Assembly (NCBI GenBank): GCA_964472495.1
Contig: CAYYLD010000001.1
Coordinates: forward strand, 21,294-85,293
DNA: 64,000 nt
Direction: 5' to 3'
Source of the DNA: an uncultured Candidatus Saccharibacteria bacterium
GTDB taxonomy: Bacteria; Patescibacteriota; Minisyncoccia; Portnoybacterales; UBA2143
In this document: positions 15,742 through 32,029 of the stretch, one piece after another
How the letters are laid out: each line of letters begins with the position of its first letter
Position numbering within the stretch: the first letter of the stretch is position 1
The notes under the pieces: model-generated
Databases searched by the model: none
What the model saw: only the letters and a program-made list of their open reading frames with translations
What the model was told of the DNA's origin: nothing
Position numbers and translations under genes: made by a program

Positions 15742-15834
15742 TATATTTCCCGATTTAAAGCTGGATAAAAATAGTCGTCTCAGGCGACTATTTTTCTTGC
15801 TTTTTAGCTGTTTTTTTGGTATTTTATGATTATT

Positions 15835-17001: not shown

Positions 17002-17087
17002 GCCCAGGTGGCGGAATTGGCATACGCGGCAGCTTGAGGAGCTGTGCTCGAAAGGGCGTGCGGGTTCGAGTCCCGCCCTGGGCACCA
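17002..17087 (+). tRNA. tRNA-Leu (anticodon GAG)
   Basis: Acceptor GCCCAGG/CCTGGGC, anticodon loop TTGAGGA, long variable arm, encoded CCA. Confidence 0.75.
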
Positions 17088-17088
17088 A

Positions 17089-17166
17089 GGGGCGGTTGGC
17101 GCAGTTGGTTAGCGCGTCTCGTTTACACCGAGAAGGTCGGGGGTTCGAATCCTCCACCGCCCACCA
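17089..17166 (+). tRNA. tRNA-Val (anticodon TAC)
   Basis: Acceptor GGGGCGG/CCGCCCA, anticodon stem TCTCG/CGAGA, loop TTTACAC, T-loop TTCGAAT, encoded CCA. Confidence 0.8.
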
Positions 17167-17246
17167 AATAGCTGTTATCAGCGGTTATTTTATTTGACAA
17201 ATCAATAGATTCATGCTATCCTTGAACAAAATTAAAGGAGGGTAAA

Positions 17247-18260
17247 ATGGCTAAAAAACCAACCATTGAAGAAATCAGAAAGTACCTTAACGAGTATGAT
17301 CCACTTGGTCTGAGGGGAGCGTCAATTGACTTAATTGGCGCTCACAACCATATTATTTACCGATTAGCCAGGGCTGGCAAATCCTTTTGTCTGCGGATGA
17401 TAAATCCGGAAAGCTATCGGGCCGGCGAGTGGCTGACTATCCCTGAAGAATTTACTATCCTTCACTACCTGAAACTCACCGGCTTAGGGCCAATACCCTA
17501 TTTTGTTGACCCGGAACGATTCAGACTCCCATTAACTATCCAAGAGTTCGTCTCGGAAATCACCTACTTTAATAATTTGAAGCCGTTCAACGAAGAGCAT
17601 CTGAAGGCAGCCGCCAAGGCGATCGCCTTACTAAACTCCCTAAACATTGACCCGATCAGATTCCCTTTCCGAAAAGGTTTTACCCGCTACTCTTATCTGA
17701 CCAGCTTGGAAACCTGGCGAGAACGCCTGGCGATAATTAAAAAGTCCGAACAGAAAGATATTCTGGAATGGGTAGACAAACTCAAAGAAGTAGTCAAGCA
17801 GGCAAAGCCGATTTTGGAAGGATTTGAACCTCTCTTGAGAGAGAGTGGTTCGCTTTTTAACTTCGACGGCGCTCACTGCGGAAATACTTTTTTGCGAGAA
17901 AAGTCAGGCAAAGTTGTTTTCCTTGACTGGCAGAAAGTAAGCTACGGAGATCCCAGTTTTACCCTGGCCCGCTTCTTAACCTCTATTGGAAAAAAAGGGG
18001 AGATTCCGGACGGAGCTAAAGAGTTGATGATTGAGGCCTATACTCAAACGGCGGCCTATCATAACTTGCTTAATAGTCATCCCAAATTAGCAGTAAATTT
18101 TGAGAAGCTGGTTGACCAGCGCCTCTTTGAACGCCAGATAGCTGACCTCATCTGGGTGGTCTGGGACTATACCAAACAAGTCAAAACCGAACCAGTTGAG
18201 GAAGCAACTAGCGTAGTTGCTCGCTACCAAAGAGTTATCGAGATGCTGAGACAATACTGA
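17247..18260 (+). CDS. phosphotransferase-family kinase (APH/choline-kinase-like fold)
   Basis: Catalytic-loop-like FDGAHCGNTF and the LDWQKVSYGDPSFTLA (DWE..GDP) motif typical of aminoglycoside/choline/homoserine kinase-type phosphotransferases. Strong RBS AAAGGAGGG. Confidence 0.6.
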   Translation: MAKKPTIEEIRKYLNEYDPLGLRGASIDLIGAHNHIIYRLARAGKSFCLRMINPESYRAGEWLTIPEEFTILHYLKLTGLGPIPYFVDPERFRLPLTIQEFVSEITYFNNLKPFNEEHLKAAAKAIALLNSLNIDPIRFPFRKGFTRYSYLTSLETWRERLAIIKKSEQKDILEWVDKLKEVVKQAKPILEGFEPLLRESGSLFNFDGAHCGNTFLREKSGKVVFLDWQKVSYGDPSFTLARFLTSIGKKGEIPDGAKELMIEAYTQTAAYHNLLNSHPKLAVNFEKLVDQRLFERQIADLIWVVWDYTKQVKTEPVEEATSVVARYQRVIEMLRQY

Positions 18261-18287
18261 GACACTCTCAATTTTTTCTGGAAAACA

Positions 18288-18324
18288 AACGGTTGCCGGG
18301 AAACAAACCGACAACCGTTTTTTA
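18288..18324 (+). terminator. Rho-independent terminator
   Basis: AAACGGTTGCCGG-gaaacaaa-CCGACAACCGT with one mismatch, followed by TTTTTTATTT. Confidence 0.65.
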
Positions 18325-18397
18325 TTTGACCCCGCATCAGAGAAATCTCGGGGCGGGGTTTGACCAAAACGCTTAAAAATGGTAATTTAGGCATTAA

Positions 18398-18488
<91 letters not shown>

Positions 18489-18518
18489 TTGGAAGTTATT
18501 ATCTTTTAATCAGAAATT

Positions 18519-18986
18519 ATGAGAGATCCGCTTCTTGAAATATCAGGTAAAATTATTGGTTTTTACGAACGAGAGTTTTATTGTTTTTCTAATTTTTCCA
18601 GTTTTACAGTTCAATGGAAAGACAAATTATGGCAAACATCGGAACACGCTTATCAAGCTTCAAGATTCTTTGAAAAGCATCCCGAAGTGGTGGAAGAAAT
18701 TTTTAATGCTCGTTCAGCTCATCAGGCCAAAAAAATTGCAGAAAAATATAGTGATTTAGCTGCCCCTGATTTTCACAAAGATAGGATTGCGGTAATGGAA
18801 GATATCTGCAGCCATAAACTACAACAGCATCCCTATATTCAAAAGAAGCTTTTACAAACAGAAAATAGAGAGATTGTAGAAGATTCTCCTCAAGACAGCT
18901 TTTGGGGCTGGGGTCCGAATAGAGGTGGCAGAAATGAATTGGGCAAAATTTGGATGAGACTTAGAGATAAATTTGTAAACCAATAA
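18519..18986 (+). CDS. NADAR (YbiA-like) domain protein
   Basis: FYCFSNFS...WQTSEHAYQASRF matches the NADAR/DUF1768 core. 155 aa. Confidence 0.6.
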   Translation: MRDPLLEISGKIIGFYEREFYCFSNFSSFTVQWKDKLWQTSEHAYQASRFFEKHPEVVEEIFNARSAHQAKKIAEKYSDLAAPDFHKDRIAVMEDICSHKLQQHPYIQKKLLQTENREIVEDSPQDSFWGWGPNRGGRNELGKIWMRLRDKFVNQ

Positions 18987-19006
18987 ACTTATAGAGTGAA
19001 TTACAT

Positions 19007-19357
19007 ATGAAAGAAAAACAAATCACTAAAATTAAACAAGCCCAGCAATTAGCAAAACTTTTTGCTAAACACAATCACTGGAAAGATATTCCCAATATTG
19101 ATAAGATTGACCATCTCCATGAAGAATTAACCGAACTTTCCCAACACCTGAGATATAAACCAGAAAAAGAACGGATAAAATTCGTTAAAGAGAATAAAGA
19201 AATCTTTGTTGACGGGATTGGCGACTTATTTTTCGGTCTCTGTCGGCTATCTAATCAGCTTGGTGTTGATATGGAAAAGGCACTAAATCTGGTTAAAAAA
19301 GAAATCTTTAACAAATATAATCATAAAAATCCCGAAAATAATATTGTTAAAGAATAA
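19007..19357 (+). CDS. MazG-like nucleotide pyrophosphohydrolase domain protein
   Basis: Small all-alpha protein with an EExxE-type segment HEELTELSQHL and a DGIGDLFF motif. 116 aa. Confidence 0.45.
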   Translation: MKEKQITKIKQAQQLAKLFAKHNHWKDIPNIDKIDHLHEELTELSQHLRYKPEKERIKFVKENKEIFVDGIGDLFFGLCRLSNQLGVDMEKALNLVKKEIFNKYNHKNPENNIVKE

Positions 19358-19375
19358 TTAATTGGAATAAAATCT

Positions 19376-19861
19376 ATGTTTGATACTTTAGTTGACCAGC
19401 CGATTTTTTTTCTCTTTCTAATAGCCATAGCTTTGCTGCTAATTTGGATTCTATTTCTTCATTTCAATCTCTGGCAGGTCAAGAAAAAGCTAAAAGTATT
19501 TTTTGCCGGCAAAAAGGCCTCGGATTTGGAAGGAGTTCTTTTTGAAGAAATTAAGCGGCTGAAAAAATCAGAAGCCGAGATTAAAAAATTGATTAAATAT
19601 TCCCAGGCCTTAGAAAAAATGGCTTCCCAAAGTATTCAGCGAATCGGCGTAATCCGGTTTAACCCTTTTAAAGAAACTGGCGGCGACCAGAGCTTTGCCA
19701 TCGCCTTGCTTGATTCGAAAGAAAACGGGCTGGTCATTTCTAGTCTATACTCCCGCGAAGGGACCAGAATTTATAGCAAACCAATTGAAGCCGGTCAGTC
19801 AAGATATCCTTTATCCAAAGAGGAAATAGAAGCCTTGAAAAAAGCCGGGATAAAAAGATGA
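19376..19861 (+). CDS. DUF4446-family protein
   Basis: N-terminal TM helix, then IGVIRFNPFKETGGDQSFAIALLD...SSLYSREGTRIYSKP, which matches my recollection of DUF4446. Confidence 0.5.
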   Translation: MFDTLVDQPIFFLFLIAIALLLIWILFLHFNLWQVKKKLKVFFAGKKASDLEGVLFEEIKRLKKSEAEIKKLIKYSQALEKMASQSIQRIGVIRFNPFKETGGDQSFAIALLDSKENGLVISSLYSREGTRIYSKPIEAGQSRYPLSKEEIEALKKAGIKR

Positions 19862-21366
19862 TTAAAAAATCGGTCAAACAATCAAATAAGCTCAAAATAA
19901 GGCCACCGGTGGTGGTCATTTTAGGCCATGTTGACCATGGTAAAACTTCTATTCTTGATTACATCCGCAAAACCAAAATAGCCGAGAAAGAGGCCGGCGG
20001 CATTACCCAACATATCGGCGCTTATCAAATAGAACATCAGGGTAAAAAAATTACCTTCATTGATACGCCCGGACACGAGGCCTTTTCGGCCATGCGTTCG
20101 CGGGGGGCTAAAGTAGCTGATGTGGCTGTTTTAGTTGTCGCCGCTGAAGAAGGGGTCAAGCCGCAAACTAAAGAAGCTATTGGTCACATTAAGAAAAGCG
20201 GCCTGCCGGCAATCGTTGCTCTGAATAAAATTGACAAAAAAGAAGCCCAGCCGGAAAAAGTTAAAGGAGAATTAGCCAAACATGGCCTGGTTGTTGAATC
20301 TTTAAACGGTCAAGTTCCTTCAATCAACCTTTCAGCTAAAACCGGCCAAGGCGTTGATGAACTCTTAGATATGATTATTTTAGTCGCTGAAATGGAAGAA
20401 TTAAAAACTGATCCCGACCAAAAGACCTCAGGAGTAGTTATTGAGGCCTATCAGGACCCTCGCCGGGGGCCAACGGCTACCCTTTTAGTCAAAGAAGGGA
20501 CTTTGGAGAATAAAGACATTGTCGGCACTGATTCGGCTTGCGGCCGGATTAAAACAATGGAAGATTTCCAATGGCAGTCGATAGAAAAAACAACCGTCTC
20601 CAGCCCTGTAATCATCACCGGCTTCAATCAGGTTCCTCAGGTCGGTGAAAAATTCTTTGCTTTTGATAGTCTGGAAGAAGCCCAAGCCAGAATCGCCAAA
20701 AAAACAGCCAAAAGAAAAGAAGAAAAAGAAGTTTTTGTCTTTGAGCCAGCCAAAAAAATCCTCAATTTAATTCTGAAAGCTGATGTCCAGGGTTCTTTAG
20801 AAGCGATTAGGGAATCGCTCAAAAGTATTCCCAGTGAAGAAGTTATTTTAAGAATCTTGAAAGCGGAAGTTGGCGAAGTCAACGAATCCGATATTAAATT
20901 AGCTGAATCAGCTCAGGCCAAAATAGTCGCCTTCCGGGTCAAGGTCAGTTCAGCCATCCGGGAATTAGCTCAGCAAAAGAAAATTAAAATCTCAAGCTTC
21001 GAAGTAATCTATGAACTAATCCAAGGAGTCCGCGAATTACTGGCTAAACTTCTAGAGCCGGAAATTGTCAAAAATGTTATTGGTCAGGTTAAGGTTCTGG
21101 CTCTCTTCCGTCGGGAAAAAGGCCGTCAGATTGTTGGCGGCCGGGTGACTGACGGCCTGGTCAAAAAAGGAGCTTCTATTGAAATTAGCCGTGAAGGGAA
21201 AAAAATCGGCCGGGCTAAATTAATTCAACTGCAGCGGAATAAAAAAGACATTGAGGAGATAGCCAAAGGGCAAGAGTGCGGCATTTTATTAGAAAGCTCT
21301 ACGGTCGTTGAAAAAGGAGATGTTTTGGAAATCTACGAGGAAGAAAAAAAGAAGAGAGAGATATAA
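19858..21366 (+). CDS. infB: translation initiation factor IF-2 (short form)
   Basis: G-domain [29 protein letters not shown], then IF2 domain II/C-terminal regions. 502 aa, i.e. lacking the long N-terminal extension. Confidence 0.9.
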
Positions 21367-21368
21367 CA

Positions 21369-21704
21369 ATGTCCCAAAGAATCCAACGAGTCAATAAATT
21401 GATTAAAGAACAAATCAGCCAGTTGATTTTAAAGGAGATTGATTTTGGCGGCACTTTAGTGACCATCACCGAAGTTGAGACGGCCGCTGATTTAAGCCGG
21501 AGTAAAATAAAAATCAGCGTCTTGCCAACCGAAAAAACCGAACAGGTTTTGCGGATTTTAAAGAAAAATATTTTTCAGCTGCAGCAGACGCTTAATAAAA
21601 AACTGACTATGAGGATAGTTCCCAAAATTATTTTTGAAATTGACCAGGCCGAAGTTAAAGCCCAGCGGATTGAGGAAATTTTAGGCCAGATGAAGAAAGA
21701 TTGA
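21369..21704 (+). CDS. rbfA: ribosome-binding factor A
   Basis: 111 aa starting MSQRIQRVNKLIKEQISQLI, typical of RbfA. Directly downstream of infB. Confidence 0.8.
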   Translation: MSQRIQRVNKLIKEQISQLILKEIDFGGTLVTITEVETAADLSRSKIKISVLPTEKTEQVLRILKKNIFQLQQTLNKKLTMRIVPKIIFEIDQAEVKAQRIEEILGQMKKD

Positions 21705-21736
21705 GTTTTTCAAAAAAGATGGTATAGTTAAAGCAA

Positions 21737-21810
21737 GGCCACGTGGCCGAGTGACTAGGCAACGGTCTGCAAAACCGTTTACACCGGTTTGAATCCGGTC
21801 GTGGCCTCCA
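21737..21810 (+). tRNA. tRNA-Cys (anticodon GCA)
   Basis: Acceptor GGCCACG/CGTGGCC, anticodon stem ACGGT/ACCGT, loop CTGCAAA, T-loop TTTGAAT, encoded CCA. Confidence 0.75.
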
Positions 21811-21811
21811 A

Positions 21812-21897
21812 GCCGCGGTGGCGGAATTGGTTTACGCGCACGACTTAAAATCGTGTGGACTTTGTCCATGTGGGTTCGAGTCCCACCCGCGGCACCA
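21812..21897 (+). tRNA. tRNA-Leu (anticodon TAA)
   Basis: Acceptor GCCGCGG/CCGCGGC, anticodon stem CACGA/TCGTG, loop CTTAAAA, long variable arm, encoded CCA. Confidence 0.75.
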
Positions 21898-21900
21898 TAT

Positions 21901-21929
21901 AAAAACCCCGTCGTTCGACGGGGTTTTTA
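21901..21929. terminator. bidirectional Rho-independent terminator
   Basis: AAAAA-CCCCGTCG-tt-CGACGGGG-TTTTTAT: perfect 8-bp stem with an A-run before and a T-run after. It overlaps the stop codon of the convergent minus-strand gene. Confidence 0.8.
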
Positions 21930-22421
21930 TGTCTCCAGAATCTCTACTTTAGCTATTTTGAGACCAAACTCTTTAGCTTCTTGACGGCTGGCAAACCAGA
22001 TATCCACCTTATGGCTGTTCCGAGCAGCCATTCGGTCCTCAACAATGAAGATTTTATCTCCATACAATTGAGGGAAGCGAATCCTGGTACCAAATCTCAA
22101 GAAATTACAAGCGACCACGCCGTCCCGGACATTACTGCCCGAAGCGGTAATAAAAGGCGTGGCGTCGGTTTGGTCAGGGGTGCTGGAATAAGCAGTTACC
22201 GGCACCCAGTATTGAGTAGCGACCACCGGCGTATCAGGATTAGTTGACTGAATCAAGGCCTGGCCCTGAAGAGTAACCAATCCGTCAAGCGGCGTCAGAG
22301 CTAAATCAACTTCTTGATTCCCAATCAAACTAAAGCCGGTTAAGGCCGATTGAGGGAAAACAAGGTGATAAATCAAGCTAACTAAAGTCAAAGAAGCGGA
22401 AATCTTAGGATTAGTATACAT
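21927..22421 (-). CDS. 3D (Asp-Asp-Asp) domain protein, secreted (cell-wall-acting, MltA/YuiC-like domain)
   Basis: Signal peptide. C-terminal VPVTAYSSTPDQTDATPFITASGSNVRDGVVACNFLRFGTRIRF...VDIWF resembles the 3D domain. Confidence 0.55.
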   Translation of the reverse strand: MYTNPKISASLTLVSLIYHLVFPQSALTGFSLIGNQEVDLALTPLDGLVTLQGQALIQSTNPDTPVVATQYWVPVTAYSSTPDQTDATPFITASGSNVRDGVVACNFLRFGTRIRFPQLYGDKIFIVEDRMAARNSHKVDIWFASRQEAKEFGLKIAKVEILET

Positions 22422-22550
22422 ATTGTCCTTTCGGCAATCAAAAAATCCCCTTTCAGGGATTTCCTATATACTATCACATTATAAGTAATTTGTCAATAGT
22501 TTCAGCTGATTCCTAAAATTTCCGCTTTTGGCCATTTTCAGCTGTTTTTG

Positions 22551-22622
22551 AGCGGGTAACGGGAGTCGAACCCGTGTCTTCTCCATGGCAAGGAGATATA
22601 ATAGCCACTATACGATACCCGC
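22551..22622 (-). tRNA. tRNA-Gly (anticodon GCC)
   Basis: The reverse complement folds with acceptor GCGGGTA/TACCCGC, anticodon stem TCTCC/GGAGA, loop TTGCCAT, T-loop TTCGACT. Confidence 0.75.
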
Positions 22623-22628
22623 TTTTGG

Positions 22629-22700
22629 TGCCGAGGGTGGGAGTCGAACCCACTACTTTCTCTTTTTCAGAGAGACACTCTACCGGTGAGTTACCTCGGC
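22629..22700 (-). tRNA. tRNA-Phe (anticodon GAA)
   Basis: The reverse complement folds with acceptor GCCGAGG/CCTCGGC, anticodon stem TCTCT/AGAGA, loop CTGAAAA, T-loop TTCGACT. Confidence 0.8.
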
Positions 22701-22761
22701 ATGGCCCGCCAAGGGCGGACACAATTCTTGTAGCCAAAATAAATTTTAGACAAAAATTATG

Positions 22762-22835
22762 TGGACCCAGAGGGATTCGAACCCTCGACCTTTAGTATGC
22801 CATACTAACGCGCTAACCAACTGCGCCATGGGCCC
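22762..22835 (-). tRNA. tRNA-Ala (anticodon GGC)
   Basis: The reverse complement folds with acceptor GGGCCCA/TGGGTCC including G3:U70. Anticodon stem TTAGT/ACTAA, loop ATGGCAT, T-loop TTCGAAT. Confidence 0.75.
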
Positions 22836-22853
22836 CTTTTTTGCCCACTCGGA

Positions 22854-22925
22854 TGCCCTCGGTAGGAATCGAACCCGCATCAAGGGCTTAGGACGCCCCT
22901 GCTCTATCCGTTGAGCTACGAGGGC
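22854..22925 (-). tRNA. tRNA-Arg (anticodon CCT)
   Basis: The reverse complement folds with acceptor GCCCTCG/CGAGGGC, D-arm GCTC/GAGC, anticodon loop GTCCTAA. One C-A mismatch in the T-stem. Confidence 0.6.
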
Positions 22926-22977
22926 TCAGAAATATTTTACAATCTTAATTTTTTTGCTACAATAGAATGATATAATA

Positions 22978-23006
22978 TTGACTAAAGATAGTCAATGAAA
23001 TATACT
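22978..23006 (+). promoter_or_regulatory. sigma-70-like promoter TTGACT-17-TATACT
   Basis: Near-consensus hexamers with a 17-bp spacer, about 22 bp upstream of the htrA start. RBS AAAGGAG. Confidence 0.5.
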
Positions 23007-23028
23007 TAATAAAAAGGAGAAAATAATT

Positions 23029-24099
23029 ATGGCTCAAAAATCTCCGGTGGTTGAAGTAGTTAAAAAAATAAGCCCGGCGGTCGTCAGTATTACCATCAGC
23101 AAGGACCTCCCTAAAATCAGAAAGTACTATATCCAGCCTTTTGACGAATTATTTGGTCCTTATGGCCAACCAGTCCCTCAATACCGGCAAGAAGGACGCC
23201 AAAAGGTTAAGATTGGCGGCGGCAGCGGCTTTTTTGTTTCGCCAGACGGCGTTATTTTAACCAATCGCCATGTTATCGTCTCGCCTAATGTTGATTACAC
23301 TATTACGACCACTGATGAAAAAGAATATCAGGCCGAAATTTTAGCCCGCGACCCGGTTAATGACGTAGCCATTATTAAAGTCAAGAATGCCAAGGGCAGA
23401 AAATTCCCTATCTTAGAATTAGGCGATTCTGCCAAGGCGGAATTAGGTCAAGGCGTCATTGCCATCGGCAATGCCTTGGGCACTTTTCGTAATACGGTTT
23501 CAACCGGGGTTGTTTCCGGTCTCAGTCGTTTTATCACCGCCCACGACGGCCTTTCGGGCCAAGCTGCTTCCTTGCGGGGATTAATTCAAACTGACGCGGC
23601 TATCAATCCAGGTAATTCCGGTGGTCCTTTAGTTGACTTAGACGGTAAAGTTATTGCCATTAATGTAGCCATCGTCATAGGCGCTCAAAATATTGGTTTT
23701 GCTATCCCGGTTAATAACGCCAAGAAAGATTTGGATGACTTGAAAAAACATGGTCGGATTATTCAGCCATTCTTAGGTGTTCGTTATATTTTAATCAACA
23801 AAGCTCTTCAAGAATCTTTCCGCCAAAGATTTAACATCGATATACCGATTGATTACGGCGCTTTAATTATCCGAGAGCCAGGCAGCGGAGAGCCAGCTGT
23901 CGTTCCCAACAGTCCAGCCAATAAAGCTGGTTTAATGGAACGCGATATTATTTTAGAATTCAATAAGGTCAAGATAACTGATAAAAATCCTCTTCAGGAG
24001 TTGATTCATAAGGCCAAGCCGGGTGACACGATTGATATTAAAATTTTGCGGGGGGATAAATTAGGAACGTTAAAATTAAAATTGGAAGAGAGGAAGTGA
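23029..24099 (+). CDS. htrA: HtrA/DegP-family serine protease with C-terminal PDZ domain
   Basis: Catalytic region GNSGGPLVDLDGKVIAINVA, upstream His and Asp motifs, and a PDZ-like C-terminus. 356 aa. Confidence 0.85.
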   Translation: MAQKSPVVEVVKKISPAVVSITISKDLPKIRKYYIQPFDELFGPYGQPVPQYRQEGRQKVKIGGGSGFFVSPDGVILTNRHVIVSPNVDYTITTTDEKEYQAEILARDPVNDVAIIKVKNAKGRKFPILELGDSAKAELGQGVIAIGNALGTFRNTVSTGVVSGLSRFITAHDGLSGQAASLRGLIQTDAAINPGNSGGPLVDLDGKVIAINVAIVIGAQNIGFAIPVNNAKKDLDDLKKHGRIIQPFLGVRYILINKALQESFRQRFNIDIPIDYGALIIREPGSGEPAVVPNSPANKAGLMERDIILEFNKVKITDKNPLQELIHKAKPGDTIDIKILRGDKLGTLKLKLEERK

Positions 24100-24122
24100 C
24101 TCTGCCTGAGAACAGAAACAAA

Positions 24123-24147
24123 AGCCCTCTGAAAACCAGAGGGTTTT
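24123..24147 (+). terminator. Rho-independent terminator
   Basis: GCCCTCTG-aaaac-CAGAGGG followed by TTTTTG. Confidence 0.65.
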
Positions 24148-24224
24148 TGCTATCTAAGGGTGTAGTTTTGAGGGATACCCTTGGAGGGGACGCCCTTGGA
24201 GAGCGGTCGTCGGAATGACACCCT

Positions 24225-24848
24225 TTAGAGAGGAATGCCAACAATTAGCTGATAAACCAAAAAAATTAGAGGTAAAATCCACTGGAAAGCAAAAAAGATA
24301 AAGAGAAGCAAGACGAACATGCCATAACGCTCTAAAAAAATTCTCAAATTCCTCCAAGAATGGGGCAAAAAGGCAAAAAGAATTTTAGAGCCGTCTAGAG
24401 GAGGCAGAGGAATAGAATTGAAAATAGCTAAAAGGAGATTAAGAAAAATAATCAAACTAAGAATTTGAATTAAACCGGCTGAAATAAATTGACCGGGTAA
24501 GAAACGCAGAAAAAAGCCAAAAACCAAAGCAATCAAAAGATTGGCCGAAGGACCGGCTGCAGCTACCTTAGCTATTCCCCAACGCTGGTCGCGTAAGTTA
24601 TAGGGATTAAAGGGGACTGGTTTAGCCCAGCCGAAGATAAAGCCGCCGCCGGATAATCTGGAAAGAAAGAACAACGTTAACGGCACAATAAAGGACCCTA
24701 TCGGATCCAGATGTTTAAGCGGATTTAGGGTCAATCGGCCAGAATATTTGGCTGTGGAATCCCCTAAACGATAAGCCATCCATCCATGAGCGAATTCGTG
24801 AACGGTAACCGAGAATAATAGGACAGCTAAAGAGAAAATAATGTCCAT
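24225..24848 (-). CDS. site-2 protease family (peptidase M50B-like) membrane metalloprotease
   Basis: HEFAHGWMAYRLGD (HExxH in the first TM helix) and LDPIGSF...NLLLAIFN motifs. 207 aa, polytopic. Confidence 0.7.
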   Translation of the reverse strand: MDIIFSLAVLLFSVTVHEFAHGWMAYRLGDSTAKYSGRLTLNPLKHLDPIGSFIVPLTLFFLSRLSGGGFIFGWAKPVPFNPYNLRDQRWGIAKVAAAGPSANLLIALVFGFFLRFLPGQFISAGLIQILSLIIFLNLLLAIFNSIPLPPLDGSKILFAFLPHSWRNLRIFLERYGMFVLLLFIFFAFQWILPLIFLVYQLIVGIPL

Positions 24849-24893
24849 AAAGCACTTGAAAATTTATTGTTTAGATGATAAAATAAAGCCATT

Positions 24894-25085
24894 ATGTCAA
24901 GACGTTGTGCTATCTGCGGCAAAAAATCAATGGTCGCTACGGTTCGTAAAAAGCTTCGTGGTAAGTATAACCCAACGACCAAAAAAAGAAAATACCCCAA
25001 TCTACAATGGGTTTATTTGCCCAATGGCCGAAGAGTTAAGGCCTGTGCTAAGTGTATTAAGGCTATGGGTAAAAGCAAAAAATAA
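24894..25085 (+). CDS. rpmB: 50S ribosomal protein L28
   Basis: MSRRCAICGKK...NPTTKKRKYPNLQ...KACAKCIK matches the bL28 pattern with a Cys zinc ribbon. 63 aa. Confidence 0.8.
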   Translation: MSRRCAICGKKSMVATVRKKLRGKYNPTTKKRKYPNLQWVYLPNGRRVKACAKCIKAMGKSKK

Positions 25086-25088
25086 TGA

Positions 25089-25162
25089 CGGGCTGTGGCC
25101 TAGCGGTTTAAGGCACACGCATGGGGTGCGTGGGATCGCGGGTTCGAATCCCGCCAGCCCGA
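25089..25162 (+). tRNA. tRNA-Pro (anticodon GGG)
   Basis: Acceptor CGGGCTG/CAGCCCG (C1-G72 as in tRNA-Pro), anticodon stem CACGC/GCGTG, loop ATGGGGT, T-loop TTCGAAT. No encoded CCA. Confidence 0.75.
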
Positions 25163-25288
25163 CTGGACAAAGCTCGAACCTTTTTCGAGCAACAATTTCT
25201 TACCCCAGAACCCTTCCAATTTTTTCGTCGCCTATTTGCCTTGTTCGTAACCGAGAAGCAAAGGTGGGACGAGCCAAAAATTATTGAA
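25162..25288. repeat. left arm of a perfect 127-bp inverted repeat (partner 30675-30801)
   Basis: 25162-25288 equals the reverse complement of 30675-30801 base for base by manual alignment. It begins at the tRNA-Pro discriminator base and contains the hairpin GCTCGAA-ccttt-TTCGAGC. Confidence 0.85.
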
Positions 25289-25571
25289 AGGTTGTGGAAA
25301 ACTTACTTTGCCACGATTGGAATTATTTAGTATTATTATAATTGAACTGATTAAACAATAGATATTTGTTCCTATTTATTTTTTACAGCAAAATAAAGTT
25401 ATGGAGGGTTATGTAAAAAATAAGACGAACTATGCTAATTTTGTCAAAATAAAAGATGGCATAATTAACGCTTGCCGACTTTTTGTTTTGGCAAAAAATC
25501 TTAATAGAAACACTGTTTTTAACAGCGTTTTTTGTTTGTGAAAGGTCAAAATAAAAATTCATTATTGAGTT

Positions 25572-26777
25572 ATGAAAAAAGTTAAAAAAACAAAGGGAGG
25601 AAAAAAACTAAATATTCCCCAGTCAAAAGAAACAGTCAGCGAACGAGAGGCGATTCTCACCTCTGTCGGCGATCCTGTAATGGGATTGGCGGTCGTTGAC
25701 AAAGATGGGAGAATAATACATGTCAATGCAGGCTTTGGAGCGCTGACTGGCTGGAAAAAAGAAGAAGTGATTGGCAAATCTTTGGTTAAAGTTATCCCCA
25801 GAGAAGATGAAAATAGGAATAGAATACCATTCCGAGAAAGAGTCCTCTCCGAGGTATTGTCAGGAAAAGTAATAACTACTATAGCTGTTAATGTTGCGGC
25901 TAATATTGAAAAACTGCCTACTTTTTATTACGTCCGAAAAGACAAAAGCAGATTTCCGGCCAGCAGTGTTATAAGCCCCGTGTTGTTTAAGGGAAAGATA
26001 ACCGGAGCCGCAGAAGTTTTTTACGACATTACTAAAGAAAAAGAATTAGAGCGAATCAGGATAGATTTTTTGTCACTGGCCTCTCATCAATTGCGCACTC
26101 CGCTTTCCGGCACCAAGTGGTTGATTGAAACGATGTATAAAGGACTCGTAGGCGAGATGACAAAAAAACAAAAAGAGTATCTTGATGATATTTATAAAGT
26201 TAATGAGCAGATGATTAAGCTTGTTTCCGATATCTTGAGCACGTTGCGGCTGGAGAGCGAGGCGGCGCTAATAAAAAAAGAGAAAGTTTCAGTATTATCT
26301 CTTTTTAAAGATATTTTAACTGCAGTGACGCCGGCAGCCAAAGAGAGGAGAGTATTATTACAAAGCCCATTAAATCATCGGAGACTTATTATTGAGATAG
26401 ACCCAGAAATATTGAAATCAATTCTTAGATCTTTTCTTTCTAACGCTATTAATTATTCAAGGCCGGGTCAAAAAGTGATTTTGGATGTTAAAAAAGAATC
26501 AGGGGCGGTAGTATTTTTTGTTCGCGATTTCGGGATCGGTATCCCCCAAAAGGAGCAGAAAAGAATGTTTGAACGATTTTATCGCGCTTCTAATGCAAGG
26601 GCTTTTAAACCAACTGGCACAGGTCTCGGTCTTAACATTGCCAGAGTGCTGGCTGAAAAGATTGGCGCAGAAATTTCATTTGAATCCAAAGAGAATAAAG
26701 GTTCTACCTTTTATTTACGCATCCCCAAAAGGTCGAACAGGGGTGCCAAAGCGAAAAGCCGTAAGGCTAAAAAGTAA
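25572..26777 (+). CDS. cytoplasmic sensor histidine kinase (PAS + HisKA + HATPase_c)
   Basis: PAS-like N-terminus, H-box LASHQLRTPLSGTKWLIE, N/G-boxes (NAINYS, DFGIGIP, GTGLGL). No TM segments. Confidence 0.85.
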   Translation: MKKVKKTKGGKKLNIPQSKETVSEREAILTSVGDPVMGLAVVDKDGRIIHVNAGFGALTGWKKEEVIGKSLVKVIPREDENRNRIPFRERVLSEVLSGKVITTIAVNVAANIEKLPTFYYVRKDKSRFPASSVISPVLFKGKITGAAEVFYDITKEKELERIRIDFLSLASHQLRTPLSGTKWLIETMYKGLVGEMTKKQKEYLDDIYKVNEQMIKLVSDILSTLRLESEAALIKKEKVSVLSLFKDILTAVTPAAKERRVLLQSPLNHRRLIIEIDPEILKSILRSFLSNAINYSRPGQKVILDVKKESGAVVFFVRDFGIGIPQKEQKRMFERFYRASNARAFKPTGTGLGLNIARVLAEKIGAEISFESKENKGSTFYLRIPKRSNRGAKAKSRKAKK

Positions 26778-26795
26778 AAAATCTAATAAACTAAA

Positions 26796-27188
26796 ATGAG
26801 TCATATATTAATTGTTGAAGACGAAGATTTTTTAATTCGGACACTTGAAGATAATTTAGTCACCGAGGGCTATACGGTTGATATTGCCAAAGATGGAGAG
26901 GAGGCGGTTGAGAAAATAGGAAAAAAGAAGCCAGACCTTATTCTGCTTGACATTTTGATGCCCAAAAAGGATGGCTTTTATGTGCTGGGGGAGACAAAAA
27001 AGAATCCTGAATGGAAATTGATTCCAGTGATTGTTTTGTCGAATCTTGGAGAAGATACGTTAATCAAGCGGGCTCTGGGGATGGGCGCTGATGACTATTT
27101 TGTAAAATCACAACACCCGATTCAAGAAATAATTGAAAAAGCGAAAGATTATCTTGAAGGCAGAAAAGCGGCCAAGCCCCGTCTTTAA
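26796..27188 (+). CDS. single-domain response regulator (CheY-like receiver)
   Basis: ILIVEDEDF, phospho-acceptor region LILLDILMPKKDGF, then VIVLSNLGE...GADDYFVK. 130 aa with no output domain. Confidence 0.85.
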   Translation: MSHILIVEDEDFLIRTLEDNLVTEGYTVDIAKDGEEAVEKIGKKKPDLILLDILMPKKDGFYVLGETKKNPEWKLIPVIVLSNLGEDTLIKRALGMGADDYFVKSQHPIQEIIEKAKDYLEGRKAAKPRL

Positions 27189-27199
27189 CAGCCGATAAA

Positions 27200-28876
27200 A
27201 TGAAACTTCAGCATATATGTTTCTCACTATTGATCCTAGCATTGGTTCTGTTTTTGCTTCCGATTGTCGTTGTAGCCGATCCGCCAGGCAGCGCAGTTAA
27301 ATTTGTCATTTTAAAACCAGATGACAGCATAGTTGGCACGCCAGTAACTGTTACTATTGAAGCCCAAAAAAGCAATAATCAGGTTGATACGGATTATCAA
27401 AGCGATGTAACTCTTGTGACCAACGGCTCGGCCACGGGCGCCGGTCTGGTGGACATTGTCAACGGCATAGGCACGATTGAAATCAATGACGAAGTGGCTG
27501 AAACCGTCAATCTTTCGCTTTCTGACACAAAAGAAACCGGACTGGATGTGAGTTCTACCCAAGAGGTTGATTTTGAAGCCGCTGAAGAAGCAGTTTGGAA
27601 TCAAACAGATTTTTGGTTCAGAGATGACGACGGAGACGAGGCTACTGCCAGCGGGTTTGGAGCTGAAAACGTAAGTCAGAATACAAATATTATCAATGTG
27701 CCGCAGGGGACAAACTTGCGTCTGCGTTTTGGCATCAGGGTTACTGGCTTTAGCGGTACCCTTATCCCTTGTCTTGAGTTTAAGCAGGGCGCTGATTGTG
27801 CTACCGGCAATTGGACAGTTATTACTCCAACGAGTGATACTTTTAATCTTTATTTATCAGACAATTTTGATGATGGCGACGCTACCACCAAGCAAATCAC
27901 AAACGGTTCTTTTGTCGCCGGCCAAATTCTGGAGTCAACCAATCCGGCTTCTTCTTTAGACCTGGCTAAGAACAAAAACACGGAATACGAATGGTCAATA
28001 GAAGTTGCCGGGGATGTCCCAGTCAGCACAACTTACAGTTTTAGGGTTAGTAATAATGGGACTGCCTTTGATAACTACGATGTGTGTCCGTCTCTGACGA
28101 CTCAATCGGGGTCAGAACCAGAGCCAGAACCAGAGCCGACTCCATCTGGCGGAAGCAAAGTAAGACCTACCACGGTAACATTTTCCGGAAGAGCTTTTCC
28201 GAACGCCAAAATATTGGTGTTAGATAAAGATGCAAGGTTAAGAAAGGCAATTAGCCAAGATTTTGTAGCTGACGAAGAAGGAAAATTTAGCGTGAGCTTC
28301 ATTGGCATAATGCAAAGTTGGCATAGTTTTGGTCTTTTGATAAAAGACAAAGAAAATCGGACCACTCAGACGAAATTTTTTAATATTGATACTTTGGCCA
28401 ATGACCTGGTGGTAAAAGATATTCTGGTACCACCAACCGTAGGTTTTACTCAAGGGGTAGTTACGCGAGGACGCAACGCCGTCATTGTCGGCTACGCTGC
28501 CCCAGAAAATGACGTTGAAATAGAAATAGGAGATATCAAGAAAGAAATTAAAGCAGAAAAAGATGGTTCATATAAAGCAGAAGTTAATACAGGAATGCTT
28601 GAATTTGACCAGCATAGAGTACGCGTAAAACAAATTGATCCGCAAGAAAAAAGGGAAAGCGATTTTTCAGTAACGAAAACTTTAGTGGTTTCGCGTCTTG
28701 CTTCGCCAAAAACAGATTTGTCCGGCGATGGCCGGGTAGATATTAGAGATTGGAGCATGTTTCTTTCAAGGTGGGAGTCAAAAGACAAAAGTCAGAAAAA
28801 AATAATTGATTTCAACGATGACGGGGAAATAAATATTTCAGATTTTAGTATATTTATTCGTGCTATTAAAAAATAA
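27200..28876 (+). CDS. secreted multidomain protein with C-terminal dockerin (type-I-like) module
   Basis: Signal peptide, an EPEPEPEPTP linker, and a C-terminal duplicated Ca-binding segment DLSGDGRVDIRDWSMF / DFNDDGEINISDFSIF that matches the dockerin DxDxDGxVxxxD pattern. Confidence 0.65.
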   Translation: MKLQHICFSLLILALVLFLLPIVVVADPPGSAVKFVILKPDDSIVGTPVTVTIEAQKSNNQVDTDYQSDVTLVTNGSATGAGLVDIVNGIGTIEINDEVAETVNLSLSDTKETGLDVSSTQEVDFEAAEEAVWNQTDFWFRDDDGDEATASGFGAENVSQNTNIINVPQGTNLRLRFGIRVTGFSGTLIPCLEFKQGADCATGNWTVITPTSDTFNLYLSDNFDDGDATTKQITNGSFVAGQILESTNPASSLDLAKNKNTEYEWSIEVAGDVPVSTTYSFRVSNNGTAFDNYDVCPSLTTQSGSEPEPEPEPTPSGGSKVRPTTVTFSGRAFPNAKILVLDKDARLRKAISQDFVADEEGKFSVSFIGIMQSWHSFGLLIKDKENRTTQTKFFNIDTLANDLVVKDILVPPTVGFTQGVVTRGRNAVIVGYAAPENDVEIEIGDIKKEIKAEKDGSYKAEVNTGMLEFDQHRVRVKQIDPQEKRESDFSVTKTLVVSRLASPKTDLSGDGRVDIRDWSMFLSRWESKDKSQKKIIDFNDDGEINISDFSIFIRAIKK

Positions 28877-28885
28877 AATGAAAAA

Positions 28886-30622
28886 ATGAAATATCAATTT
28901 AAAACAATTATAGCCATATTGGCTGGGGTCATTGCTTGGGGTATTTTTTCTTCGGCGCAGGCCGCTACACTTTCTTTAACACCTATTAGTTCCGAGATTG
29001 GAATCGGAGAAAAAATGACGATTGAGATTAGGATTGATAGCGAAGGGGAAAGCTTTAACGCAGCCCAGGCAGTAATTCGTTTCCCTAAAGATACGCTTGA
29101 GGTGACTGCATTAGACAAAGCAGAATCCGTATTCAGCTTTTGGCTTGAAGAGCCAAATTTTTCAAATACGGACGGAGTTGTATCATTTATCGGCGGCACA
29201 CCGTCCGGAGTTTCCGGGGGCGCTGTCAGAGTTCTGAAGATAGAATTTCTGGCCAAAGGAACTGGTAGCGGGACACTTTCTTTTGTAGAAGCCGCTGTCA
29301 CGGCGGCTGACGGAAGCGGAACCAATATACTATCAGAGATAAATGATGCAGTGATTATGGTAGTCCCTCAAAGAGTTATTCCAAAAGTTCCAGAATCCCA
29401 GCAAAAAATTCCGGAGCCCGAACAAATTGTCCGGAAACCCGCGCCTTCAGAGAAATTGCCTTCAAGCCCCGTTCTTAAAATTTCACTCTATCCTGAAGAA
29501 ACCCGTTGGTATAATCTGGTGGCGCAGTTTACGGTAAGTTGGGATTTACCGCTTGATATTTCTGGCGTGAGCACGGCGCTCAACAAATACCCAAACTCTA
29601 TCCCGCCCGGACGATCCGAAGGACTTTTTGATAATAAAAGCTTCGCGGCGCTCGGAGACGGCATTTGGTACCTTCATGTTCGTTTTCAAAACAATCTTGG
29701 CTGGGGACCGACTGCGCATCACCGTTTGGCCGTTGATACCCAACCCCCACTTGGTTTTGAGCTTACCGTCGTTGAAGGCGAGGCGACTGATAATCCAACC
29801 CCTACGTTTCAATTCAAGACCAGCGACGCTCTCTCTGGTCTTCGAGAGTACCAGGTAAGAATTGGCGACGGAGATCTGATAAAAATTCCCGCAGCGGAGT
29901 TTAATGGGAGCTTTAAGTTACCATTGCAATCGCCGGGTAAGCGGCGGATTACCGTAAAAGCGGTTGATCAGGCCGATAATGGCATTGAAGATGACGTAAT
30001 GCTGGAAACTATTCCTATTGCGTCACCGACCATAAGTTTTGTTACCAGGGAATTATTCTCTGATGAGGAAAGAGGCTTAACTATCAAAGGAACGGCCTTG
30101 CCGGGTGTTAATATGCTGCTGGCTGTTCTTCGGCAAGGCGCGCTTGTTGCTGAAAGCACAATTCGCGCTGATGAAAAAGGCAACTGGGAATTTACTTTTG
30201 ACCAGCCTTTTAGGAATGGACGGTATATTTTAACTGCCCAGAGTCAAGATGAGCGAGGCGCCTTGAGCTTAACAGTGGAATCTCCAGAAGTGCGGGTCAA
30301 AAGCAAGCCGATTATCCAGATTGGGTTTATCCAGCTGGGGAAAGGCGGCGCGGCCCTGCTCTTGCTTTTCATACTGATAGTAGGGTTTGGCACAGGAGCT
30401 TGGTTTTATAAAAAACGGCAGGAGAAATTAGCCCTGCGACTTTTGGTTGTTAAAACCGACATGGCCAAGGTCTTTAAACTTATTCAGGACGATATAGAAA
30501 AATTACAAAAAGCCATTGGAACTCCAATCGAGGCGGACGACGAATTTATGATGAAAAGACTGCAGGAAAATATCAAGAAAATGGAAGGATATCTCAAAAA
30601 AGAAATAGAGAAATTAGAATAG
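28886..30622 (+). CDS. cohesin-domain-like surface protein, C-terminal TM anchor and cytoplasmic coiled coil
   Basis: Signal peptide. An N-terminal beta-rich module (ATLSLTPISSEIGIGEKMTIEIRID...AQAVIRFPKDTLEV...VRVLKIEFLAKGTGSGTLSF) resembles cohesin domains. Pro-rich linker, further Ig-like modules, TM helix AALLLLFILIVGFGTGAW, then KR-rich coiled coil. Confidence 0.5.
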   Translation: MKYQFKTIIAILAGVIAWGIFSSAQAATLSLTPISSEIGIGEKMTIEIRIDSEGESFNAAQAVIRFPKDTLEVTALDKAESVFSFWLEEPNFSNTDGVVSFIGGTPSGVSGGAVRVLKIEFLAKGTGSGTLSFVEAAVTAADGSGTNILSEINDAVIMVVPQRVIPKVPESQQKIPEPEQIVRKPAPSEKLPSSPVLKISLYPEETRWYNLVAQFTVSWDLPLDISGVSTALNKYPNSIPPGRSEGLFDNKSFAALGDGIWYLHVRFQNNLGWGPTAHHRLAVDTQPPLGFELTVVEGEATDNPTPTFQFKTSDALSGLREYQVRIGDGDLIKIPAAEFNGSFKLPLQSPGKRRITVKAVDQADNGIEDDVMLETIPIASPTISFVTRELFSDEERGLTIKGTALPGVNMLLAVLRQGALVAESTIRADEKGNWEFTFDQPFRNGRYILTAQSQDERGALSLTVESPEVRVKSKPIIQIGFIQLGKGGAALLLLFILIVGFGTGAWFYKKRQEKLALRLLVVKTDMAKVFKLIQDDIEKLQKAIGTPIEADDEFMMKRLQENIKKMEGYLKKEIEKLE

Positions 30623-30674
30623 TTGATAATTTGTTTACATTTTTGACCGAATTCATCGCTCTCTTTATTTTCTC

Positions 30675-30801
30675 TTCAATAATTTTTGGCTCGTCCCACC
30701 TTTGCTTCTCGGTTACGAACAAGGCAAATAGGCGACGAAAAAATTGGAAGGGTTCTGGGGTAAGAAATTGTTGCTCGAAAAAGGTTCGAGCTTTGTCCAG
30801 T
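30675..30801. repeat. right arm of the perfect 127-bp inverted repeat (partner 25162-25288)
   Basis: See the left arm. Divergence starts immediately outside both ends (25289 a vs g; 25161 g vs t). Confidence 0.85.
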
Positions 30802-30873
30802 AATTGCGACCAAAAGAAAAACGCCTGGTCAGGGTGTTTTTTTATACCCTTAACAAGGCGCTGTATTTAATGC

Positions 30874-31086
30874 TCAAGGTGAACTGATTTTAATACTTTT
30901 TATTCGGCCACCCCGCTTCTTCATCTTGCCTTGAATCCGGCGAAATTTAATATGACGACATTTAACATTGTTAATTCCCCCGCAATTAGGACAATTTACT
31001 AAAAAACTAGGGTTTCCTTCTCCTTTTCTCTTGACTCTGGAGATATCAATTTCATTACCGCAAGACCGACATCTTATCCAGTCCAT
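30874..31086 (-). CDS. zinc-ribbon miniprotein (CxxC-x22-CxxC), paralog C
   Basis: 70 aa MDWIRCRSCGNE...VNCPNCGG. GGGGAGG RBS. Basic C-terminal tail. Confidence 0.55.
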   Translation of the reverse strand: MDWIRCRSCGNEIDISRVKRKGEGNPSFLVNCPNCGGINNVKCRHIKFRRIQGKMKKRGGRIKSIKISSP

Positions 31087-31408
31087 TATCCTCCCCTTGC
31101 TTAGACCACCATTGTATTTTATATTTCCAGCCAGTCAGCGTTTTTCTTGTTCCATCAAATGAACATTCTTCTGCCCAAGGGGGAGCTCTTAAAAAATGTC
31201 GATGATTCCTACTGCGGTGCACCTGGATACTTTCGTCAACATGACCAGAAACAAAAAAGGGGGCGAAATAGCCATTACTTAATCCAGCGAAAAAAACACC
31301 TTCTGTATGCCGAGTAAGTCCGTCATTCGGCTTTAAACGACACCTTGTCCCAGGCGTTTCAGGAATTTTCTCGTCTTCGGCTAATCTGTGAAATGCTGGT
31401 ACTCCCAT
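31055..31408 (-). CDS. hypothetical protein (117 aa; His/Asp-rich segment FFVSGHVDESIQVHRSRNHRH)
   Basis: The track ORF extends to 31465; I chose the ATG at 31408, which has the strong RBS GGAAAGGAGGAGAGG. No confident family assignment. Confidence 0.45.
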   Translation of the reverse strand: MGVPAFHRLAEDEKIPETPGTRCRLKPNDGLTRHTEGVFFAGLSNGYFAPFFVSGHVDESIQVHRSRNHRHFLRAPPWAEECSFDGTRKTLTGWKYKIQWWSKQGEDNGLDKMSVLR

Positions 31409-31619
31409 ACCTCTCCTCCTTTCCGGGTTTATAAAAAAGAACAAATTAAATGGCTTTACTGACAAGACATTTTTTTCTTAAAATTTCGCTCAAAAAATAG
31501 GTGGTTGTCCGCAAGTTAACGCCAAAGCGTTAACCAATATAGGATTCCCTGTCTATGATGATTAATCTGAAATCTTAAAGAAAAATCTTGGACAGTAAAG
31601 CCATCCTTATTATACCGTC

Positions 31620-31811
31620 TCACCAAATACTTGTCAACGGGTCGGTCGCGGCAATTGTCTCAATCCCTTGACCAAATTGTTTAATCATGTTTCTGGCTCG
31701 ACAAAGAGGACATTTGACTATCCGGCTATCTTCAAAACCAGGATTGACTTCTAGAGGTATAGATTCTTCTCCGCACCACCAACACCTTACTTTGATTTCT
31801 TCCTTTTCCAT
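31620..31811 (-). CDS. zinc-ribbon miniprotein (CxxC-x21-CxxC), paralog B
   Basis: 63 aa MEKEEIKVRCWWCGEE...VKCPLCRARN. RBS GAGAGG. Confidence 0.55.
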   Translation of the reverse strand: MEKEEIKVRCWWCGEESIPLEVNPGFEDSRIVKCPLCRARNMIKQFGQGIETIAATDPLTSIW

Positions 31812-31831
31812 CTTTTCTATTCCTCTCTGTT

Positions 31832-31990
31832 CTAAAATTCGTTTGGATTAATAACAATAACCTTGCCGTTCTTTTTCTTCTCAACTATGTTCTTAAAGCC
31901 GCAACGGGGACATTCAATTGCCCTTTTTTTGTCCAAAGAACCGTCCTTGAATATAATTCTTTTCCGACAACCCTGACATTCTAACTTCAT
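31832..31990 (-). CDS. zinc-ribbon miniprotein (CxxC-x18-CxxC), paralog A
   Basis: Start trimmed to MKLECQGCRK... (ATG 31990), which has the RBS GAAAGGAGGGAGGG. The longer track ORF would include the upstream terminator U-run. Confidence 0.55.
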   Translation of the reverse strand: MKLECQGCRKRIIFKDGSLDKKRAIECPRCGFKNIVEKKKNGKVIVINPNEF

Positions 31991-32029
31991 TCCCTCCCTC
32001 CTTTCTGTTGTTAAAATGTTAAAGGACAA

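Follow-up and report, generated by a model that had tools for sequence, protein, structure and literature searches.

Perfect 127-bp inverted repeats around a Patescibacteria dockerin/cohesin operon, most likely the enlarged arms of an older intergenic quasi-palindrome

The 64-kb stretch of Patescibacteria DNA analysed here (hereafter the window) carries a perfect inverted repeat whose two arms, each of 127 nucleotides (nt), bracket an operon encoding a histidine kinase, a response regulator, a dockerin-bearing protein and a cohesin-family protein. The arms are most likely neither the ends of a mobile element, nor the sites of a recombinase-operated switch, nor an assembly error, and instead represent the enlarged, homogenised arms of an older quasi-palindrome situated between two genes. 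With rather better than even confidence, we regard the locus as a rearrangement scar, in which the operon was translocated into a pre-existing quasi-palindromic spacer, whose arms subsequently expanded and were homogenised. The feature is best read as an inverted repeat that is specific to this lineage, expanded recently and surrounds a resident operon that was translocated; it adds an example to processes already known, and no sign of a dedicated device was seen. The elements at the two ends of the bracketed segment are:

25089–25162, plus strand: tRNA-Pro(GGG) (Rfam RF00005, 61.9 bits; end placed at 25163 by ARAGORN), whose discriminator A opens the left arm
25162–25288, plus strand: left arm, hereafter v, 127 nt; positions 1 to ~107 native to the site, positions 115–127 native to the upstream region of the operon
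25172–25190, no strand assigned: hairpin 1 (GCTCGAA-CCTTT-TTCGAGC), located in the left arm behind tRNA-Pro; its palindrome resembles a terminator
30675–30801, minus strand: right arm, the reverse complement of v; outer ~40 nt native to the site, inner ~85 nt copied from the left arm
30802–30873, minus strand: 3' flank of a zinc-ribbon gene, containing an A/T-flanked terminator-like sequence; the flank adjoins the arm in a sister species too
30874–31086, minus strand: gene for a 70-residue zinc-ribbon protein, which opens the right flank and converges on the operon

A repeat search and a direct string comparison agree that the left arm is the exact reverse complement of the right arm over 127 of 127 positions (100%), with 5386 nt between the two. 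Similarity stops at all four arm edges, where the bases immediately outside differ. An earlier reading of this DNA from its letters alone (the sequence-only reading) had described the complete identity, the abrupt divergence outside the ends, the start of the left arm at the discriminator base of tRNA-Pro(GGG) and a GCTCGAA/TTCGAGC hairpin in each arm. All of this was borne out: the Rfam tRNA ends at 25162, and the 7-bp hairpin at 25172–25190 has its second copy in the right arm at 30773–30791. In both places it probably acts as a terminator, behind tRNA-Pro in the left arm and, in the right arm, between the operon and the zinc-ribbon gene that converges on it.

Exactly two copies of a 55-nt arm fragment are present in the window, against none in 100 shuffles. 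The same reading had proposed looking for additional copies of the 127-mer, and the search returned nothing beyond this locus: no further copy was found in the window, ~115 fetched loci, viral contigs, phage or plasmid collections, or the GTDB species representatives. Queried with a 31-mer of the arm, metagenome_contigs yielded only one contig that had already been retrieved and the viral contigs yielded no match; a 26-mer had no match among the GTDB genome representatives, and the source species is therefore not represented there. We share the view that a recent duplication or homogenisation underlies the repeat, reading the perfection of the arms as the outcome of recent copying or homogenisation. 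The flanks (ending in cagcccg before the left arm and opening with aattgcg after the right arm) have no direct repeat in common that could represent a target-site duplication. Likewise, there is no direct repeat of the 3' part of the tRNA of the attL/attR kind, the repeat being inverted and overlapping the tRNA by the discriminator base alone.

The same site without the operon exists in a sister species, Candidatus Portnoybacteria CG23, in which the neighbouring M50 protease is 92% identical. Eight contigs of this species (L103–L110) carry ComEC, Lactamase_B, ADK-like and zinc-ribbon genes, a 429-nt spacer, tRNA-Pro(GGG), L28, M50, HtrA and tRNA-Arg/Ala/Phe/Gly, in an order that corresponds to the flank of the window on the right-arm side (flank C) joined to that on the left-arm side (flank A), without the cassette. 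A comparison of the tRNA-Pro locus among relatives, which the sequence-only reading had recommended as a check for an empty site, was thus positive. In an outgroup (L111; M50 77% identical), the L28, M50 and HtrA genes adjoin zinc-ribbon, NDK, Lactamase_B and ComEC genes, and this contig has no cassette, no repeat, no tRNA-Pro and no palindromic spacer.

The 429-nt spacer of the sister species (for example, L107 4880–5308) is itself a nested palindrome. Its outer arms are 48 nt long, 85% complementary and 333 nt apart, or, if drawn more generously, 92 nt long at 74%; a shorter, imperfect inverted repeat is therefore already present at the orthologous site. Hairpin 1 is the conserved core of this older 48-nt repeat. 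On the C side, the sister arm together with its flank (element positions 6–56) matches window positions 30813–30763 at 94% over 51 nt, and L107 4856–4935 matches 30842–30763 at 89%; the sister arm matches the left arm of the window at 92% over 39 nt. On the A side, the sister arm is homologous to v(1–31) in the same orientation. Deeper into the arm, v(32–82) matches the sister spacer in the A-side orientation only, with a local score of 44 against 21 ± 3.6 for shuffled sequences (0 of 1000 reaching it), whereas the reverse orientation scores 33, within the shuffle range. By-eye reading of the sister sequence extends the homology of the left arm to about position 107. The window has no equivalent of ~185 nt of this spacer. 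The sister tRNA-Pro(GGG) is the same but is followed by 48 extra nt before the repeat begins; the left arm abuts the tRNA in the window because these 48 nt are missing. The tRNA is therefore not an integration site of the kind used by integrases, the insertion point lying ~110 nt downstream of it, within the spacer. The sister spacer also contains perfect 19-nt inner repeats (AATCCCGCCCAGCGTTTCC; GCAAAACAGAAAAATTTTC), and gene callers place differing small open reading frames (ORFs) there.

The DNA enclosed by the arms contains the following features, all on the plus strand:

25276–25302: conserved 27-nt block, AAAAATTATTGAA continuing into AGGTTGTGGAAAAC, which straddles the inner edge of the left arm and marks the left end of the translocated operon DNA
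25308–25342: promoter-like site (-35 TTGCCA, -10 TATTAT/TATAAT), enclosed by the repeats and also kept in L017 and L021
25509–25533: terminator-like hairpin in the ~230-nt leader of the kinase gene, with pairs kept in three species and three pairs changed on both sides
25572–26777: PAS histidine kinase (Pfam PAS_9, HisKA, HATPase_c)
26796–27188: receiver-only response regulator (Pfam Response_reg)
27200–28876: secreted dockerin-bearing protein (Pfam Dockerin_1, E 3e-7)
28886–30622: cohesin-family, Ig-like membrane-anchored protein of 578 residues (Pfam Big_13)
30623–30674: native 3' tail of the operon, with the motif TTGATAATTTGTTTACATT at 30623–30641; operon-derived DNA ends here

Pfam supports the kinase, receiver and dockerin assignments made previously for three of these four genes. 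The cohesin label of the fourth comes from its homologues, several of which, matching over their full length, are named cohesin-domain proteins by their sources, while Big_13 is the sole Pfam match of the 578-residue protein. Full-length homologues of this protein, 28–88% identical, are found in 80 GTDB Patescibacteria species representatives, and the gene order of kinase, regulator, one to six dockerin proteins and cohesin protein is widely kept across Patescibacteria, with different neighbours in every relative. A long, separated inverted repeat surrounds the operon at none of the 82 loci of relatives; a 373-nt, 71% inverted match around the cassette of L086 proved to be two paralogous receiver genes and not a repeat element. 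The operon is a resident of the phylum, not the cargo of a mobile element.

Both ends of the inserted DNA can be traced in these relatives. L017 and L021, whose cohesin proteins are ~74% and ~78% identical, respectively, to that of the window, share with it a conserved stretch of ~300 nt ahead of the kinase gene. In L021 the block AAAAATTATTGAA–AGGTTGTGGAAAAC precedes the kinase gene without interruption, and in L017 a hairpin of 46 nt is inserted into it; since this conserved block crosses the inner edge of the left arm, the final 13 nt of the arm are operon DNA. The first 13 nt of the block recur, inverted, at 30675–30687. The extension of the right arm is hence an inverted copy of sequences native only beside the left arm, namely v(32–82) and the operon-upstream 13-mer. 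At the other end, conservation continues for at least 22 nt past the stop codon, reaching about as far as the beginning of the right arm; the 3' motif is shared only by the closest four loci. The idea of a short ancestral repeat flanking the operon in all relatives was dropped on account of this restricted distribution. The operon tail of the window is without the hairpin present there in several relatives. In L023 (88% identical) and L017 (74%), a convergent tRNA-Gly(TCC) lies 58–92 nt beyond the cohesin stop codon, in place of the repeat; this adjacency is lost in the window.

Several smaller observations concern the operon and its relatives. The hairpin within the otherwise conserved upstream block of L017 (5761–5806) is G+C-rich and perfect (CCCGCTCGCCTCGCT...AGCGAGGCGAGCGGG), and looks like a small palindromic insertion element. 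The kinase leader (25343–25571, ~230 nt) is conserved in L017 and L021, carries its hairpin and a T-run directly before the ribosome-binding site and has no match in Rfam; from these sequence features, it is a candidate transcription attenuator or riboregulator of the two-component/cohesin operon. Upstream of the cohesin gene, the number of tandem dockerin paralogues ranges from one to ~6 across Patescibacteria lineages (loci L023–L102). Many contigs of relatives end 700–2200 nt upstream of the cohesin gene, inside a dockerin gene, and this clustering of contig ends suggests strain-level hypervariability at the dockerin gene.

We infer the following order of events. The common ancestor of the window organism and CG23 would have had a short, imperfect inverted repeat between tRNA-Pro(GGG) and the convergent zinc-ribbon gene, the arms of which each bore the same terminator-like hairpin and enclosed a few hundred bases. 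The kinase/regulator/dockerin/cohesin operon would then have been inserted into this spacer ~110 nt downstream of the tRNA, with the left junction near v(108–114), having left an older place beside tRNA-Gly(TCC) and brought along its promoter, leader and a 3' tail of 52 nt. Since the inner 13 nt of the left arm are operon-upstream DNA, the right arm would have been extended by copying of the left arm after the insertion, growing inward from ~40 to 127 nt. Both v(43–~107), native to the site, and the 13-mer, native to the operon, would have been included in the copy; what remained of the spacer would have been lost, and the arms would have become identical over 127 nt. The most likely mechanism would be replication template switching or gene conversion, primed on the ~40 nt of pre-existing homology. 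Finally, a 48-nt deletion would have brought the left arm against the tRNA; the base with which the arm begins serves as the discriminator and is at the same time the A of the ancestral ...AATTACTGG. Imperfect repeat arms are known to become more alike and longer through template switching between them (PMC13100816, PMC8604942 and PMC7202029).

The repeat is real and not a product of assembly. Other contigs of the locus were retrieved by exact-protein look-ups with the regulator, L28, zinc-ribbon and dockerin proteins; look-ups with the kinase and cohesin proteins of the window returned no record, and that with the dockerin protein revealed no new arrangement of the locus. The locus is matched by contigs from six other Joint Genome Institute (JGI) metagenome samples and from one Logan run assembly, in the same orientation wherever they extend. 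Two contigs from two other samples carry both arms in the orientation of the window: L009 (60 kb), which reaches well into both flanks, and L001 (53.5 kb), which ends 63 nt past the right arm. A further set includes flank C, the right arm and the operon end (L011 and L012) or flank A, the left arm and the operon start (L002/L005, L003, L006, L007 and L008). One position in the right arm varies among these sequences:

30737, no strand assigned: polymorphic site at arm position 65; G in the window (perfect repeat), A in L009, L011 and L012 (126 of 127 positions)

In the three contigs with A, each from a different sample, arm position 65 reads T in the right arm against C in the left, and the repeat boundaries are unchanged. 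This single-nucleotide polymorphism (SNP) implies that the two arms are separate copies; moreover, it makes every 127-mer across the right arm unique, so that the path through it is not a collapsed graph vertex. The SNP of some strains is a later mutation or a difference that was never converted. In the independent Logan assembly, contig L010 breaks off after 30 nt of the arm, which places the break at the same outer boundary and is expected for k = 31, on which we take this assembly to be based. The SNP is one 127-mer away from where contigs L002 (30736) and L001 (30864) end and from where L012 begins (30610), an indication that samples 3300031624 and 3300031551 contain both variants of the right arm.

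An assembly artefact was among the three explanations listed by the sequence-only reading. In its favour, 127 is the largest k-mer of common metagenome assemblers (for example, in metaSPAdes settings), and one sample has two contigs whose overlap at the right arm is exactly 127 nt long. That a k = 127 graph vertex or a chimeric join produced the repeat is, however, barely credible. The same structure recurs in contigs of other samples, the SNP-bearing contigs leave no repeated 127-mer in the right arm, the Logan assembly breaks at the same outer boundary, and the outer portions of both arms are orthologous to the sister-species locus. Elsewhere among the fetched loci, perfect palindromes of 120 nt and 40 nt were seen exactly at contig ends (L047 17146–17265 and L102 1–40, respectively); these look like fold-back assembly artefacts, in contrast with the repeat of the window, which is internal and independently reproduced.

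Several considerations weigh against a translocation followed by expansion of the arms. Documented cases of template switching mostly concern arms separated by tens to hundreds of bases, against 5.4 kb here; either a switch across the fork or a gene conversion whose inner end is non-homologous must therefore be assumed. No mobile-element gene among the scanned ORFs of the window marks the move of the operon. The polarity of the flanks is drawn from one sister species and one outgroup, and the older neighbourhood of the operon from two relatives. The 13-nt match that ties the inner edge of the right arm to the operon upstream region is A+T-rich and credible only through its continuation into the conserved 14 nt beyond the arm. 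The coincidence of the repeat length with an assembler k-mer is treated as such because the SNP-bearing arms keep identical boundaries. Lastly, a minority of cells may carry the operon in the inverted orientation, contigs being consensus sequences.

Inversion of the segment by recombination between the arms was the first explanation offered by the sequence-only reading, and it is physically plausible, 127-bp arms being long enough for occasional RecA-dependent inversion. The arms may thus serve as a substrate for such RecA-type inversion of the 5.4-kb operon. A programmed version, in which a site-specific recombinase encoded elsewhere flips the operon between the arms to give phase variation, is a different matter and strikes us as very improbable, even though long, perfect inverted repeats do flank a surface-protein operon and contig breaks exactly one k-mer from the arm SNP point to right-arm heterogeneity of the population in two samples. 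Every arm-spanning contig from the six other JGI samples is in one orientation, in assemblies that are consensus sequences and blind to minority isomers. In addition, the conserved promoter-like site at 25308–25342 lies inside the segment and would move with the operon, so that inversion would not change expression. Together, the internal promoter and the single orientation make a switch function unlikely. No recombinase was found in the 64-kb window, no such repeats surround the same operon at the 82 loci of relatives, and the arms descend from an older spacer palindrome. The second explanation had the arms as terminal inverted repeats of a non-autonomous transposon inserted beside the tRNA. 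As stated it is unsupported, since the outer 39–51 nt of both arms are already present at the empty site of the sister species, and it is further opposed by the missing target-site duplication, the single-copy status in the searches, the absence of a transposase from the window scan and the operon-derived inner end of the left arm, which is not the end of an element. A broader version, in which the 127-bp arms or the 48-nt cores are the ends of a foldback unit mobilised in trans, carrying the operon here and ~330 nt of filler in the sister species, could draw on the variable presence of the cassette between close species and on the outgroup, which has no repeat-bounded unit, so that the palindromic unit arose or arrived here at some point. 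The same objections apply to it, the arms of the two species moreover sharing only their outer ~40 nt, and we hold it to be quite unlikely.

Were the cassette and its long repeats ancestral and secondarily deleted in the sister species, a degraded palindrome would have been left behind, and the v(32–82)-like sequence kept in the sister spacer could be such a remnant. This course of events seems unlikely: the cassette is also absent from this place in the outgroup, the operon lies beside tRNA-Gly(TCC) in two relatives, recombination between inverted arms inverts and does not delete, and the ~185 nt particular to the sister spacer are absent from the window. A role at the RNA level would fit the exact complementarity of the arms and their transcribed-looking positions, one in the tRNA trailer and the other at an operon 3' tail that has no hairpin of its own. 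The ends of a tRNA-Pro read-through transcript could pair as a 127-bp stem for RNase III processing or stabilisation, as around rRNA, or the tRNA trailer could pair in trans with the 3' untranslated region of the operon. There is, however, a conserved promoter downstream of the left arm; folding of the arm on both strands gave energies no better than shuffles (z -1.7 and -0.8); Rfam over 24000–32000 returned tRNA only and no match for the arm; and the arrangement recurs at none of the 82 loci of relatives, leaving no sign of selection. We rate such a role as decidedly improbable. To much the same small degree, the unit between tRNA-Pro and the zinc-ribbon gene might be a previously unrecognised, recombinase-independent capture-and-flip site of ultra-small Patescibacteria genomes, at which long, hairpin-forming spacers recurrently capture resident operons and the arms then expand; if so, the operon could be inverted, for instance relative to the direction of replication, or moved again.

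Translocation into the quasi-palindromic spacer, followed by expansion of its arms, can be compared with quasi-palindrome template-switch mutagenesis and inverted-repeat expansion (PMC7202029, PMC8604942 and PMC13100816). In common with these, a short, imperfect repeat (here, that of the sister species) becomes longer and perfect (that of the window), and the part added to one arm is an inverted copy of sequence unique to the vicinity of the other. The window differs from the known cases in the 5.4 kb between its arms, as opposed to tens to hundreds of bases, in the coupling to the insertion of a whole operon, and in that a mechanism would be read from comparative anatomy only.

Other known systems resemble the locus in part. 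Invertons such as Hin, the Gin/G segment and the Fim switches also have inverted repeats around segments encoding surface proteins; in the window, no invertase or tyrosine recombinase is found nearby, arm length far exceeds that of typical recombinase sites, the segment includes the promoter and only one orientation was found. With genomic islands and integrative elements adjacent to tRNA genes, the locus shares a segment that is present or absent beside a tRNA gene and an empty site in a close relative. It departs from them in that no integrase was found, the repeat is inverted and excludes the tRNA, the insertion point lies ~110 nt downstream and what was inserted is a conserved operon resident in the phylum. 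In large inverted repeats with flipping through homologous recombination, such as those of plastid genomes and inversions between rRNA operons, perfect or near-perfect arms are likewise kept similar by recombination or conversion, and inversion would be an expected by-product; the arms here are only 127 bp long and non-coding, and no isomer was observed. The 429-nt unit of the sister species recalls miniature inverted-repeat transposable elements (MITEs) and foldback elements in being a nested intergenic palindrome, yet it is single-copy in the searched data, has no target-site duplication and shares its arms with the terminator regions of the flanking genes.

No new molecular system is revealed by the locus. 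Its value lies in a natural series of three steps, from an outgroup without a palindrome, through a sister species with a short, imperfect palindrome, to an operon within perfect 127-bp arms, which shows that a long, perfect inverted repeat can form around a whole operon without mobile-element machinery. It is a caution for screens that take long inverted repeats beside tRNA genes as transposon ends or phase switches, and it demonstrates that a repeat whose length matches an assembler k can still be genuine. It also offers a case study of rearrangement in the reduced, recombinase-poor genomes of candidate phyla.

The surroundings of the operon are housekeeping DNA of Patescibacteria (Paceibacteria-type), with genes for GyrA, FtsH, IF-2, FtsZ/FtsA, RtcB, HisRS, TopA, DprA and ParAB and 15 tRNAs. 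Integrase, invertase, resolvase and transposase domains were absent from the window ORFs of at least 150 residues (Pfam), from the small ORFs flanking the cassette and from the JGI/Pfam gene calls covering ~14.9–39.4 kb; ORFs below 150 residues were covered at the cassette flanks and within the latter interval only. The Pfam scan and the JGI gene calls thus uphold the earlier statement that no recombinase or transposase gene is visible in the window. One sister strain has a 74-residue Resolvase-domain fragment (L104 11840–12064), located ~5 kb beyond M50/HtrA in a stretch that differs from L103 and not beside the palindromic spacer. Between the right arm and the ADK-like gene, the minus strand (30874–32029) holds small zinc-ribbon ORFs of 70, 63 and 65 residues and an ORF of 136 residues; the counterparts of this zinc-ribbon run in the sister species are 113 and 82 residues long, and at the corresponding place the outgroup carries a single small, convergent zinc-ribbon-like gene.

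On a larger scale, 11500–30650 forms an 18-kb block of plus-strand genes with positive GC skew inside a minus-strand region of negative skew, the inserted operon constituting its right end, and ParAB lies at 60.5–62.3 kb. The cumulative GC skew peaks near 30.7 kb, and a replication terminus at the right arm was considered and rejected, given that the block of positive skew extends over only ~18 kb and tracks gene orientation, and that ParAB is 30 kb away. Within the same block, ARAGORN calls a 491-nt transfer-messenger RNA (tmRNA) at 17997–18487 (tag ARYQRVIEMLRQY), which overlaps the 3' end of an APH-family ORF (17247–18260) and encloses tRNA-Ser(CGA); it is probably a false call built on this tRNA.

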